Position numbers and translations under genes: made by a program
The notes under the pieces: model-generated
The model's database searches: none
Told to the model about the DNA's origin: nothing
The model's input: the letters and a program-made list of their open reading frames with translations, nothing else
Shown here: positions 28,198 through 29,914 of the stretch, in pieces
Position numbering within the stretch: the stretch's first letter is position 1
Layout: each line of letters begins with the position of its first letter
Source: a virus
Virus genome (UHGV): UHGV-0131723
Reading direction: 5' to 3' (one strand)
Length of the DNA: 41,571 nt

Positions 28198-28662
28198 TTA
28201 CTTTGGATATACACTGTCAAGATAAATATCAGCTTCCATTCTACGTCTGTTTTTCAGGCCGTTTGAAGTGACCTTCTTACCTTTGACTGTAACCTTGTTC
28301 CACCACTGCATAGCTTCTGCACAACCTACCTTATTACCAGCATTGTGGCGCTTGATAAATGTAGAATCCTGCATAGCTGTGATACCGATGTTGTATGTTT
28401 CACTTACAAGTGCATCGAACTCGTTCTGGGAAGTTGGAACCTTGATGGCTTTGTTCACTGCTGCAACGAACTTTTCAACATCTGCGAGAAGATACTGTTC
28501 AGCTTGTTCAGCGGTAATCTTCATACCCATCTTAACAGGCTTCCCACCAATACGAATTGTCCCATACCCAATTGTTGGGATTCCGGCAGAGTCTTCGTAA
28601 GCCTCTAACTTAAGACCTTCAAAGAACTTAATAGCTTCTAAACCTTTTCTTGAGAGTTGCAT
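28198..28662 (-). CDS. Endolysin, GH24 phage lysozyme
   Basis: N-terminal LEAIKFFEGLKLEAYEDSAGIPTIGYG matches the lambda R / P22-type lysozyme catalytic region; 154 aa. Confidence 0.8.
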   Translation of the reverse strand: MQLSRKGLEAIKFFEGLKLEAYEDSAGIPTIGYGTIRIGGKPVKMGMKITAEQAEQYLLADVEKFVAAVNKAIKVPTSQNEFDALVSETYNIGITAMQDSTFIKRHNAGNKVGCAEAMQWWNKVTVKGKKVTSNGLKNRRRMEADIYLDSVYPK

Positions 28663-29546
28663 TATGCCTCCCCTGCTGGGTTAACTGTAACTGTTGCTGC
28701 ATTAGATGTTACAGAGCCACCTGCACCAGTAACTACACAAGTGTAGCTTCCTGCATCAGCAGTGGTTGCACCTTCTTTGGTGTAAGTTGCAGCAGTTGCA
28801 TCGAGGATGTCTTCCTCACCTTTCTTCCACTGGTAACCTGTTGCACCTGTTGCCACAACATTCAGCGTTAAGGTATCACCTTCAGTGATTTCTTGATTGG
28901 TTGGTTGCTGAGTGATTACCGGAAGTGCGTTCACAGTCACTGTTGCTGAATCTGAGGTAACACTTGTTCCACCCTCTCCAGATACAACACAAGTGTATGA
29001 ACCAGCGTCAGAAGGTGCTACTGACTGTTTTGTGTAAGTTGCAGAATTGGCACTAGGGATATCCTCACCATCCTTCTTCCACTGATATCCAGTGGCGTTA
29101 GTTGCTAGAATGCTTAGAGTAAGTGTGCCACCCTCATTGACTGTTTGACCTGTTGGTTGCTGAGTAATTGCTGGTGGCTTAATAGCATCCTTCAACTTAG
29201 CATTCAACATTGAGAACGGCTTAACTCTTGCCAACCATTCACAATACACTGTGTCAATGTCTTTACCATTGATGATTGCATACTGTAAATCCATGAAGAA
29301 ATCAGCAGTCCTCATCTGTGCACCAACACTGTAAAGGAGTTCATCACTAAAAGGAACTTTGTAGTCTGGTTTGTAGTCAAACTTCGCAACCTCTGCAATA
29401 TCAGCTTCAGGCCAATATGAGCTATAGGTTAGCGGTAAAATAGCTTCTTGATATGTTCTAAAATCATATCTCTTACCAGCCTTTACATTTGCAACGAAAC
29501 CTTTTACAAATTCTTTGAAGTCTGGGTAAGTCTTTGCTTTAATCAT
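28662..29546 (-). CDS. Protein with two tandem Ig-like repeats and N-terminal domain paralogous to neighbour
   Basis: Two ~80-aa repeats (TQQPT..TGYQWKK..AGSYTCVV..ATVTVN); N-terminus similar to 29558..29914 product. Confidence 0.6.
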   Translation of the reverse strand: MIKAKTYPDFKEFVKGFVANVKAGKRYDFRTYQEAILPLTYSSYWPEADIAEVAKFDYKPDYKVPFSDELLYSVGAQMRTADFFMDLQYAIINGKDIDTVYCEWLARVKPFSMLNAKLKDAIKPPAITQQPTGQTVNEGGTLTLSILATNATGYQWKKDGEDIPSANSATYTKQSVAPSDAGSYTCVVSGEGGTSVTSDSATVTVNALPVITQQPTNQEITEGDTLTLNVVATGATGYQWKKGEEDILDATAATYTKEGATTADAGSYTCVVTGAGGSVTSNAATVTVNPAGEA

Positions 29547-29557
29547 TTCTTTTTAGC

Positions 29558-29914
29558 CTATAAACGTGCGTTTAATCTAAAATAGCCTTTATGTTGTGGA
29601 GACACATCACTAACAACAATACCTTCAACTTTATAGCCCTTACCAATTACATACTGGATATCCATAAGAAACGTACCAAGCCCAACAATGTGGAACATTG
29701 GGTATAGTAACTTATCTGAATCTGGGAGTTTAATTTCTGGTTTATAGGTAGGTTGTTCGGCAGTTGGTGTAATATCTTCTTCAGGCCATTTGCTAAGTCT
29801 CCATGTTAAAGGTGATGCAATAACATCGTTAAGATTATATCTCTCACCTTTCTCCACGGAATTAATATAGGATTGTAGGAAGCAATAAAAGTCTTTTGCA
29901 CTCTTAGCCTTCAT
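29558..29914 (-). CDS. Hypothetical protein, paralog of N-terminal domain of 28662..29546
   Basis: MKAKSAKDFY..KGERYNL.. versus MIKAKTYPDF..AGKRYDF.. Confidence 0.55.
   Translation of the reverse strand: MKAKSAKDFYCFLQSYINSVEKGERYNLNDVIASPLTWRLSKWPEEDITPTAEQPTYKPEIKLPDSDKLLYPMFHIVGLGTFLMDIQYVIGKGYKVEGIVVSDVSPQHKGYFRLNARL

Follow-up and report, generated by a model that had tools for sequence, protein, structure and literature searches.

A conserved Ig-less paralog beside the Hex-Dec head decoration gene of a Felix O1-like phage

The window analyzed here, a viral DNA stretch of 41,571 nucleotides, comes from a Felixounavirus, that is, a Felix O1-like myophage. Two adjacent genes on its minus strand are paralogous: a short gene at 29558..29914 (118 aa; phrog_4463; assigned by BLASTP, phmmer, and AF2/Foldseek), consisting of a capsid-binding domain (CapBD) without an Ig-like domain, and a long gene at 28662..29546 (294 aa; phmmer and phrog_3995), consisting of a CapBD and two Ig-like domains. 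Both ORFs had been placed at these positions by an earlier sequence-only reading, and the placement holds. The long gene is directly followed by the gene for a GH24 endolysin (28198..28662, minus strand; Pfam PF00959, E = 7e-41; phrog_7), whose ATG start and the TAA stop of the long gene run into each other in the sequence TAATG. Past the endolysin gene, a terminator-like hairpin detected by consensus scan (28171..28188, minus strand), which is identical in sequence to terminator t35 of Felix O1 (PMC3185647), closes this three-gene unit. Directly upstream of the short gene, the same type of scan detected a second terminator-like hairpin (29938..29953, minus strand) composed of GGGGC-loop-GCCCC and a T-rich tail, with the stem kept in Felix O1, wV8, Moogle, SUSP1, and a metagenomic contig (L010). 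The wV8 record annotates the counterpart of this hairpin as a rho-independent terminator. A sigma-70-like promoter for the gene pair was not found between the upstream hairpin and the ribosome-binding site, and promoter-like matches in the region were no commoner than in shuffled sequences. Farther upstream lies a gene for a 196-aa protein of unknown function (29962..30552, minus strand; phrog_4034; assigned by synteny), which by synteny is the conserved upstream neighbor of the CapBD gene across all lineages examined. Its product shows 29% identity to phiEa104 gp039 (E = 2e-23), and searches of Pfam, PDB, NCBIfam, and PADLOC returned no match.

The long gene encodes the known Hoc-like head decoration protein of Felix O1-like phages, named Hex-Dec in Bas63 and gp20 in Sf14, and offers nothing new beyond one more allele. 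In phmmer searches of the PDB, the long protein matched the Bas63 Hex-Dec chain (9ncf_S) with E = 5e-245 and the Sf14 gp20 chain (9c2d_S) with E = 4e-166; the match to the phrog_3995 profile had E = 3e-170. The CapBD, delimited by identity to 9NCF_S and 9C2D_S, comprises aa 1-120 (29187..29546, minus strand), with 114 of the 120 residues (95%) identical to Bas63 Hex-Dec and 107 (89%) identical to Sf14 gp20. In both phages, cryo-EM showed a monomeric CapBD plugging the center of the 60 pentamer-adjacent hexamers of a T=9 capsid (PMC12609058; PMC11821841), and in Sf14, Arg79 and Arg107 of gp20 form salt bridges with Asp221 of the MCP (PMC11821841). Both arginines are present in the window, with the codons of R79 (29310-29312) and R107 (29226-29228) reading Arg, and they are invariant in 15 long homologues. 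Given the 95% identity to Bas63, the long protein of the window phage probably occupies the same capsid site. Furthermore, MS of Felix O1 virions detected the orthologue, gp36, at 44% coverage (PMC3185647). The two lobes of the Bas63 domain are related by pseudo-C2 symmetry, and an internal duplication of the CapBD was undetectable in sequence when its two halves were compared (hhalign, E = 0.35).

The long protein had been proposed to be a virion-surface or adhesion protein. The surface location is borne out, with orthologues whose anchors are 89-95% identical resolved on capsids in 9NCF and 9C2D; the site is the center of capsid hexamers, not the tail, and the protein is not a generic adhesin (PMC12609058; PMC11821841). 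The widespread annotation of the long gene as a "tail protein" is confirmed to be wrong. The Ig-like domains would project outward from the capsid and, by analogy with T4 Hoc, might help virions adhere weakly to surfaces, to mucus, or to one another. The locus, lying outside the structural module and directly upstream of the GH24 endolysin gene, is the conserved Hex-Dec locus. The position beside the endolysin gene had been regarded as unusual, but the subfamily as a whole shares it, and the literature already records it (Whichard, 2010, PMC3185647; PMC12609058).

Both structure papers, which appeared in 2025, cover this protein, its Ig number of 1-4, and its site outside the structural module (PMC12609058; PMC11821841). 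Hex-Dec of Bas63 (JohannRWettstein; 9NCF chain S) is the product of the same gene in the same genus, with R79/R107, C-terminal tandem I-set Ig domains, and a locus that, as in the window, lies apart from the structural module and upstream of the endolysin gene, but it carries four Ig domains, compared with two here (Hodgkinson-Bean et al., Sci Adv 2025, PMC12609058). The Mooglevirus orthologue, gp20 of Shigella phage Sf14 (9C2D/9C3A chain S), shares the R79/R107 contacts to MCP D221, was detected by MS, and differs in carrying three Ig domains (Subramanian et al., Commun Biol 2025, PMC11821841). Directly upstream of gp20, the Sf14 genome encodes the short paralog as well (FDI99_gp021), a protein neither discussed nor listed in the paper (PMC11821841).

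The two tandem repeats of the long protein (aa 124-205 and 209-290; 67% identity, E = 2e-36) are Ig-like domains, as the sequence-only reading had stated. Domain 1 (28932..29177, minus strand) was assigned from Pfam Ig_3, Ig_2, and I-set, and domain 2 (28677..28922, minus strand) from its similarity to domain 1; each of the three profiles matched two stretches of the protein, with E = 3e-22 for Ig_3 (79 bits versus a cut-off of 30). The AlphaFold2 model of residues 123-290 is all-beta with a pLDDT of ~95, and its best Foldseek matches in the PDB are tandem Ig domains, namely those of MALT1, Robo2 (Ig2-3), MuSK, and titin (E ~1e-14). The DNA of domain 1 is nearly identical to that of Ig1 of phage EcoM2, and domain 2 is the counterpart of the third Ig domain in the three-domain EcoM2 allele, with a clean 249-nt in-frame indel, bounded by the repeated 14-nt ACTGTGAAYGCACT, between the two alleles. 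In EF202P1, Felix O1, and Tf, the Ig domains are chimeric, with differing breakpoints. These nucleotide comparisons indicate that unequal homologous recombination inside the tandem repeats shifts the Ig number among close relatives; the copy-number change is seen at nucleotide resolution, at the 14-nt repeat and at sites internal to the repeat unit. The long protein had also been called diversifying, which applies to its Ig copy number but not to its codons: dN/dS values were 0.02-0.05 in the CapBD and 0.05-0.14 in Ig1, both indicative of purifying selection, with values for the last Ig domain between genera left out because one-codon indels and chimeric, non-orthologous domains make that comparison unreliable.

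The short protein shares the N-terminal module of ~120 aa with the long one, confirming the paralogy that had been noted from the sequence: pairwise alignment gave 43/120 identities (36%) over the entire short protein (BLASTP, E = 2e-17), and the PHROG profiles cross-matched, with E = 2e-16 for phrog_4463 against the long protein and 1e-15 for phrog_3995 against the short protein. In phmmer searches, the short protein matched 9ncf_S with E = 1.7e-13, and searches of Pfam, NCBIfam, PADLOC, and the PDB gave only Hex-Dec chains. Its AF2 model, which is of moderate confidence (pLDDT 65), matched only 9ncf_S and 9c2d_S in a Foldseek search of the PDB (TM 0.72/0.71), with the next match at E = 4. 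Both anchor arginines are absent from the short protein, with Gly78 and Gln107 at the positions of R79 and R107 of the long protein. In family alignments, the R79 site is Gly in all short paralogs, and the R107 site is mostly Gln or His, with Arg confined to one homologue (P0100). Identity to the long protein falls to 1-3 residues per 15 near aligned positions 91-115, and the surface of the short paralog is conserved yet different exactly where gp20 contacts the MCP. The loss of R79 does not prove a loss of capsid binding, because three distant single-copy CapBD proteins with display domains (P0103, P0105, and P0106) also lack this residue. The short gene is a conserved copy of the capsid-anchoring domain alone and is apparently undescribed, being mentioned in neither structure paper (PMC12609058; PMC11821841).

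With respect to expression, RT-PCR of Felix O1 showed ORF36 and ORF37, corresponding to Hex-Dec and the short gene, to peak at 60 min, and the flanking ORF35 and ORF38 to peak at 25 min. Such late expression alongside Hex-Dec, together with the retained CapBD fold and a surface altered exactly at the gp20-MCP contacts, would suit a second, Ig-less permanent decoration protein at sites inaccessible to Hex-Dec, namely the 20 three-fold hexamers or the pentamers, that was missed through symmetry averaging. Indeed, P0106 provides a precedent for an Ig-less CapBD protein as the sole copy in the slot, and the three-fold hexamers of Sf14 show a different Asp221 geometry that disfavors gp20 (PMC11821841). 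However, the virion data point the other way, making such a permanent decoration unlikely. The MS list of Felix O1 virion proteins, thresholded at ≥25% coverage, includes gp36 but not gp37, although proteins of 12-14 kDa were detected (PMC3185647); the only proteins by which the VpaE1 proteome extends that list are gp54, gp58, and gp68, a wording that implies the absence of the short paralog from VpaE1 virions; and the structural protein table of Sf14 is without it (PMC11821841). Moreover, cryo-EM of Bas63 and Sf14 showed such density only at the 60 edge hexamers, modeled as Hex-Dec/gp20 (PMC12609058; PMC11821841). The lack of density on the 20 central hexamers is weak evidence, because symmetry averaging would blur a monomer bound on an icosahedral three-fold axis. 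A related proposal, equally doubtful, is that the short paralog marks or caps hexamers that Hex-Dec is unable to bind owing to the geometry of their Asp221 ring, either the 20 three-fold hexamers or those of the pre-expansion procapsid. If so, Felix O1-like heads would read two hexamer conformations with two paralogous plugs, the shorter of which would have been missed because of symmetry averaging and the cut-offs applied in MS.

The junction of the two paralogs (29547..29565, minus strand) was compared in an alignment of 10 phages. In relatives, the stop codon of the short gene overlaps the Hex-Dec ATG as ATGA, and the final codons of the short gene hold the Shine-Dalgarno sequence of Hex-Dec (GAGG), which in the window reads TAGG. 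The window gene ends five codons early at a TAG stop private to it (29558-29560), so its product ends at residue 118, whereas all homologues found are 122-124 aa long and have GAG (Glu) at codon 119. Read-through of this TAG by a phage suppressor tRNA was considered and rejected, with no CUA anticodon among 25 tRNAs and an extra tRNA-like match. The gene has also been lost naturally: 19 records forming one clade, including Tf, REP5-12, SP116, mio, and Z31, share an internal deletion of ~223 nt and lack the ATG, with Hex-Dec intact. In a CRISPRi-ART screen of SUSP1, agp125 and agp126, which include the orthologue of the short gene, scored "Not Fit," in a screen with acknowledged false negatives in which even the endolysin gene scored "Not Fit." On the basis of the deletion clade and this knockdown, the short gene is dispensable.

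This dispensability, the premature TAG of the window copy, and nonsynonymous change that is 2-4 times faster than in the CapBD would fit a functionless, decaying duplicate surviving only because its 3′ end bears the ribosome-binding site of Hex-Dec. Such decay is quite improbable in view of the retention of the gene. Its dN/dS of 0.08-0.18, measured across three genera with saturated dS, is higher than the CapBD values but indicative of purifying selection. An intact copy is present in ~234 of 253 Ounavirinae records (Felixounavirus, Mooglevirus, and Suspvirus), a full-length ORF is kept in a lineage at only 49% identity, and the same gene order is found on a divergent 87-kb metagenomic contig. 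The gene also has its own strong AAGGA ribosome-binding site. Furthermore, the remnant in the Tf clade still retains the Hex-Dec ribosome-binding site, which therefore does not need the whole short ORF.

Regarding the origin of the pair, a profile search for the CapBD family over 1.84 billion representatives found 12 proteins, all in Ounavirinae-like contexts; word-indexed homologue searches returned close relatives only. Kolesnikvirus (phiEa104/phiEa21-4 gp038) and the metagenomic proteins P0103, P0105, and P0106 belong to the same family and occupy the same slot, between a ~190-aa gene and the lysozyme gene, but differ from the window phage in having a single copy, without a short paralog, and in using a Big_2-type domain or a Lys/Ser-rich tail, rather than an I-set Ig domain, as the display part. 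Likewise, in Kolesnikvirus and two metagenomic lineages (L013 and L016), the single CapBD gene in the lysozyme-adjacent slot is fused to a display domain or tail. Because the single CapBD gene of these distant relatives already bears a display domain in the same slot, the long gene is probably the positional ancestor and the short gene a derived, Ig-less duplicate. The timing of the duplication relative to Kolesnikvirus is based on synteny and not on the neighbor-joining tree of 14 CapBDs, in which the deep nodes have bootstrap values of 28-46, too low to fix the deep branching order. The sequence-only reading had proposed the reverse direction, in which an ancestral 120-aa gene was duplicated and one copy gained Ig domains, yielding a diversifying adhesin at an anomalous position beside the endolysin gene. 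Paralogy and Ig domains are both borne out, and the Ig number does vary among relatives, but the display parts of the single-copy lineages, the lack of any sign of positive selection, and the subfamily-wide conservation of the position make this scenario very unlikely. The observation itself is confirmed, and its interpretation is partly supported. Finally, the idea that ribosomes undergo programmed −1 frameshifting at U-AAA-AAG, located 4 nt ahead of the short-gene stop, and so produce a CapBD-CapBD-Ig fusion was rejected as having practically no chance of being correct: Felix O1, EcoM2, EF202P1, and Tf do have GCU AAA AAG AAA UGA, from which a −1 slip would enter the Hex-Dec frame, but the slippery run is not conserved, being absent from wV8, Moogle, Sf14, SUSP1, and L010, the TAG stop of the window lies upstream of it, and the MS mass of Felix O1 gp36, 31.6 kDa, is that of the unfused protein (PMC3185647).

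Overall, with a probability of roughly 0.85, the long gene encodes Hex-Dec and the short gene is an old CapBD duplicate that gives a functional but dispensable late product and no stoichiometric component of the virion. The short gene would have arisen by an old tandem duplication of the CapBD alone, placed between the conserved 196-aa gene and Hex-Dec, with its product keeping the core of the fold and its 3′ end bearing the Hex-Dec ribosome-binding site. As to function, it may tentatively be suggested, at less than even odds, that during head assembly the short protein contacts the capsid lattice or Hex-Dec through its CapBD fold in a transient or altered manner and is not a second permanent decoration. 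The identity of Hex-Dec, its variable Ig number, and its locus outside the structural module are already known, and the short paralog, a conserved, late-expressed CapBD copy lacking both Ig domains and anchor arginines, is what the two structure papers pass over. If the short protein binds capsids or Hex-Dec, the decoration protein would have a paralog dedicated to it as a partner, which is rare, and the pair could help to show how a monomer tells hexamer conformations of a T=9 capsid apart, with Tf, REP5-12, SP116, mio, and Z31 serving as ready-made natural deletion controls. Hex-Dec-type anchors are also candidate carriers for display on therapeutic phages of the Felix O1 type, where a competitor for the same site would matter.

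Among other decoration proteins, T4 Hoc resembles Hex-Dec in being a monomeric, non-essential decoration of hexamer centers with a chain of Ig-like domains whose number differs among relatives. However, the capsid-binding domain of Hoc is C-terminal, unlike the N-terminal CapBD of Hex-Dec, shows no sequence similarity to it, and is topologically distinct (PMC12609058). No Hoc chain was found among the PDB sequence matches of the long protein outside the Ig region, and "Hoc-like" matches in PHROG are restricted to residues 120-292. Thus, the long protein resembles Hoc in the way it works without belonging to the Hoc family. T4 Hoc is not known to have an anchor-only paralog. T5 pb10 (gene N5; PDB 5LXK/8ZVI) has a single Ig domain detectably similar to those of the long protein (E = 1e-12), but its anchor domain is unrelated to the CapBD, so the Ig part alone matches; this similarity explains the annotation of the EF202P1 protein as an "N5 decoration protein."

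The longer of the two adjacent genes (28662-29546, minus strand; 294 aa in the ORF listing of the window) encodes a member of a structurally solved family of capsid decoration proteins. In a phmmer search of PDB sequences, its product matched chain S of 9NCF (Bas63 "Immunoglobulin-like domain protein", 460 aa; E=5e-245) and chain S of 9C2D/9C3A (Sf14 "tail protein", 372 aa; E=4e-166), with residues 1-120 identical at 114 and 107 of 120 positions, respectively. The cryo-EM papers name this product Hex-Dec or gp20, restrict it to the 60 pentamer-adjacent hexamers of the T=9 shell, and describe one to four flexible Ig-like domains after its capsid-binding domain (CapBD) (PMC12609058, PMC11821841). 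In Sf14 gp20, Arg79 and Arg107 form salt bridges with Asp221 of the major capsid protein (PMC11821841), and both arginines are present in the window's protein. Thus, the long-gene half of the finding is already explained: the gene functions as described for its 95%-identical orthologue, capsid attachment has been shown in relatives, and we infer, by analogy with T4 Hoc, that the protein may have an outward adhesion role. The Felix O1 genome paper detected gp36 (31.6 kDa) in virions by mass spectrometry (MS), called it the "major tail protein", and already remarked on the odd location of its gene (PMC3185647); the wrong annotation "tail protein", carried by the Hex-Dec gene in most genomes (PMC12609058), traces back to that paper. 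In Bas63, the gene lies >10 kb outside the structural module (PMC12609058). At its core, the finding is already in the literature and so is ordinary for the genus.

Two 83-residue repeats, 67% identical to each other, follow CapBD in the long protein. Against Pfam, they score well over the curated cut-offs of Ig_3, Ig_2, and I-set, residues 123-290 form an all-beta AlphaFold2 model (pLDDT ~95), and the best PDB matches of the modelled repeats in Foldseek are tandem Ig domains, bearing out the Ig-like repeats described in the sequence-only reading. Felixounaviruses differ in Hex-Dec Ig number (PMC12609058); the EcoM2 protein (377 aa) contains three Ig domains, and one-domain alleles (210 aa) are common in metagenomes. 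Relative to EcoM2, the window's gene lacks exactly 249 nt, corresponding to the middle Ig domain, with nearly identical flanks and a junction within ACTGTGAAYGCACT, a 14-nt repeat found at the end of each Ig unit. Other two-domain relatives have chimeric domains: in EF202P1 and Felix O1, the second domain is Ig2-like in its first half and Ig3-like in its second, joined at TGATGYQWKK, and the first domain of Tf is an Ig1/Ig2 chimera. Since these junctions differ from one another and from the clean Ig2 loss in the window, equal length hides independent recombination. Such a pattern is what repeated unequal homologous exchange between tandem units would leave. Two-domain alleles of different phages do not contain the same two domains. 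At the codon level, selection is purifying (dN/dS 0.02-0.05 in CapBD and 0.05-0.14 in Ig1); thus, the proposal of a "diversifying" surface protein fits the variable Ig architecture, but not positive selection.

The product of the short gene (29558-29914, minus strand; 118 aa) aligns with the long product over its whole length (43/120 identical, E=2e-17), and each matches the other's PHROG profile. This alignment of the shared N-terminal module, together with the Ig folds, confirms the original observation, the interpretation of which was right only in part. The short protein has no match in Pfam, NCBIfam, or PADLOC and falls in phrog_4463, "unknown function", as its orthologue is also annotated in the SUSP1 re-annotation (PMC11879866). 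Its sole sequence relatives in the PDB are the two Hex-Dec chains (E=1.7e-13 and 5e-11). Likewise, across the whole PDB its AlphaFold2 model (pLDDT 65, pTM 0.65) matches these two chains only, with TM 0.71-0.72 over the full domain and E=4 for the next match. The short protein is a bare CapBD. Neither structure paper contains the word "paralog" or mentions Sf14 gp21, the corresponding short protein (PMC12609058, PMC11821841). What is new is a conserved CapBD-only paralog, a variant form within a known family of decoration proteins; its role is testable.

Four consecutive minus-strand ORFs span 28198-30552: a 196-aa ORF (29962-30552; phrog_4034), the short gene, the long gene, and a 154-aa GH24 phage lysozyme (28198-28662; Pfam PF00959, E=7e-41). 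All 249 phage records that megablast matched to 28100-30600 are Felix O1-like (Ounavirinae), Escherichia phage EcoM2 being the best (96.5% identity), and the window contains the tRNA array typical of such phages. By tblastn, most of 253 Felixounavirus, Mooglevirus, and Suspvirus records contain both copies, at two places in each. On an 87-kb metagenomic contig, the genes follow the same order (195 aa, 122 aa, 298 aa, lysozyme), and the short protein there shares only ~49% identity with known ones. When 1.84 billion representative proteins were searched exhaustively with a profile, only 12 CapBD family members were found. The more distant ones are single-copy and lie in the same slot, in the order DUF2828, DUF5681, ~62 aa, ~185-205 aa, CapBD gene, lysozyme; in Kolesnikvirus, the CapBD gene occupies one place per record among the records listed. 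A Big_2-type C-terminal domain is found in Kolesnikvirus phiEa104 gp038 and in one divergent member (P0105), and a Lys/Ser-rich tail in another (P0106). Placement beside the endolysin, which had been considered unusual, is therefore a hallmark of the subfamily, distant single-copy relatives included. The same synteny makes the long gene the positional orthologue of the ancestral gene, and the short gene would accordingly be an Ig-less duplicate inserted in the clade of Felixounavirus, Mooglevirus, Suspvirus, and the 87-kb contig; this conclusion rests on gene order, since deep nodes of the neighbour-joining tree are unresolved (bootstrap 28-46).

In all lineages seen, the CapBD gene invariably has the gene for the 196-aa protein as its upstream neighbour (29% identity to the Kolesnikvirus counterpart, E=2e-23). 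The window's copy matched nothing in Pfam, the PDB, NCBIfam, or PADLOC; a faint Pfam Phage_Inh_N match is on record for metagenomic counterparts. In Felix O1, expression of its gene is highest in the middle period, and its orthologue was "Not Fit" in the SUSP1 screen (PMC11879866).

Two GC-rich, terminator-like hairpins with T-rich tails on the minus strand (29938-29953, with a stem conserved across genera, and 28171-28188) bracket exactly three genes, namely the short paralog, Hex-Dec, and endolysin, and the wV8 or Felix O1 annotations include each of them. The interval from the upstream hairpin to the ribosome-binding site accommodates no sigma-70-like promoter. Hex-Dec has its GAGG Shine-Dalgarno inside the last short-gene codons (TTA GAG GCT ...), the short-gene stop overlaps the Hex-Dec ATG in relatives, and the Hex-Dec stop overlaps the lysozyme ATG. 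A frameshift fusion of the short and long genes was ruled out on conservation. By RT-PCR in Felix O1, ORF36 (Hex-Dec) and ORF37 (short gene) both peak at 60 min, like portal, sheath, and fibre genes, and ORF35 and ORF38 at 25 min; the paralogs thus peak late and the endolysin earlier.

Pairwise dN/dS of the short gene (0.08-0.18 at dS 0.8-1.5) indicates a functional coding gene, with non-synonymous evolution two to four times faster than in CapBD. In 19 records (Tf, REP5-12, SP116 (two records), mio, Z31, fBSPA4, fKMPT1, P54, two CECAV phages, and EcF-vB), the short gene carries one common internal deletion of ~223 nt and has also lost its start codon. The remnant, at 2306-2497 of the Shigella phage Tf sequence (L006) and in the 18 other records, is 94-100% identical among them, and the adjoining Hex-Dec gene is intact. 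The common deletion indicates that one Felixounavirus lineage, spread on E. coli, Shigella, and Salmonella, lost the short gene; these phages are natural knock-outs usable as controls. In the SUSP1 CRISPRi-ART screen, which was transcriptome-wide and for which false negatives are acknowledged, agp126 (short), agp125 (Hex-Dec), agp124 (lysozyme), and agp127 were all "Not Fit" (PMC11879866, supplementary file 16). In the window, codon 119 of the short gene (29558-29565 region, minus strand) is TAG, as opposed to GAG in all homologues found, removing the last five residues (EAKKK); none of the window's phage tRNAs can suppress it. This private truncation fits dispensability. The change also breaks the ATGA stop/start overlap and converts the Hex-Dec Shine-Dalgarno from GAGG to TAGG, which could slightly lower Hex-Dec translation.

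Alignments of the two families show a common core that includes (short numbering) D8-F9, F12, G23, R25-Y26, P35-L36, W43-P44-E45, D47-I48, L69-L70-Y71, F82, M84-D85, Q87-Y88, and L114-N115-A116. Across aligned positions ~91-115, the paralogs have only 1-3 identical residues in every 15. The R79 segment is IVGLG in every short paralog versus QMRTAD in the long protein, and the R107 segment SPQHKG or SPHHKG versus LARVKP, with Arg at the R107 position only in the divergent P0100 among short paralogs. Both segments are strongly conserved inside each family, which suggests, instead of decay, that the binding partner or geometry has changed. R79 is also missing from some distant CapBD proteins with display domains, so the arginines are not a universal requirement for capsid binding in the family.

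The evidence supports a product that is functional, late, and dispensable, with a CapBD fold and a remodelled contact surface, and that does not form a stoichiometric part of the virion. In Felix O1, whole-phage MS detected gp36 at 44% coverage and several 12-16 kDa proteins, with gp37 not listed (PMC3185647). In VpaE1, where ORF39c is Hex-Dec and ORF40c the short gene, only gp54, gp58, and gp68 were new virion proteins relative to Felix O1. Cryo-EM density was modelled as Hex-Dec/gp20 on the edge hexamers, with none on other hexamers (PMC12609058, PMC11821841). The preferred reading, given roughly one chance in three, is that the short protein would make a transient or altered contact with the capsid lattice or Hex-Dec during head assembly. 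The main rival, considered improbable, casts the short protein as a permanent plug without Ig domains on the 20 three-fold hexamers, overlooked because of symmetry averaging and MS thresholds. Pure decay is less probable still, being at odds with the short-gene dN/dS and retention across genera.

Divergent from the lysis/decoration cluster and directly upstream of the tRNA array lie genes for a DUF5681 protein (31172-31543, plus strand) and a 471-aa DUF2828 "RNA-binding protein" (31625-33040, plus strand); agp130, the SUSP1 DUF5681 orthologue, is scored "Fit" in the CRISPRi-ART data (PMC11879866). Within the 25-gene tRNA array, 34781-34859 (plus strand) matches the Rfam tRNA model (31.7 bits; gathering score 29) with no ARAGORN call. 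Its anticodon loop, CUUCUAA, implies anticodon UCU (Arg/AGA), its D-arm region comprises only ~4 nt, and its variable insert is 20 nt long; this may be a pseudo tRNA-Arg or one without a D-arm. The Felix O1 paper commented that one would expect a tRNA for AGA (PMC3185647).
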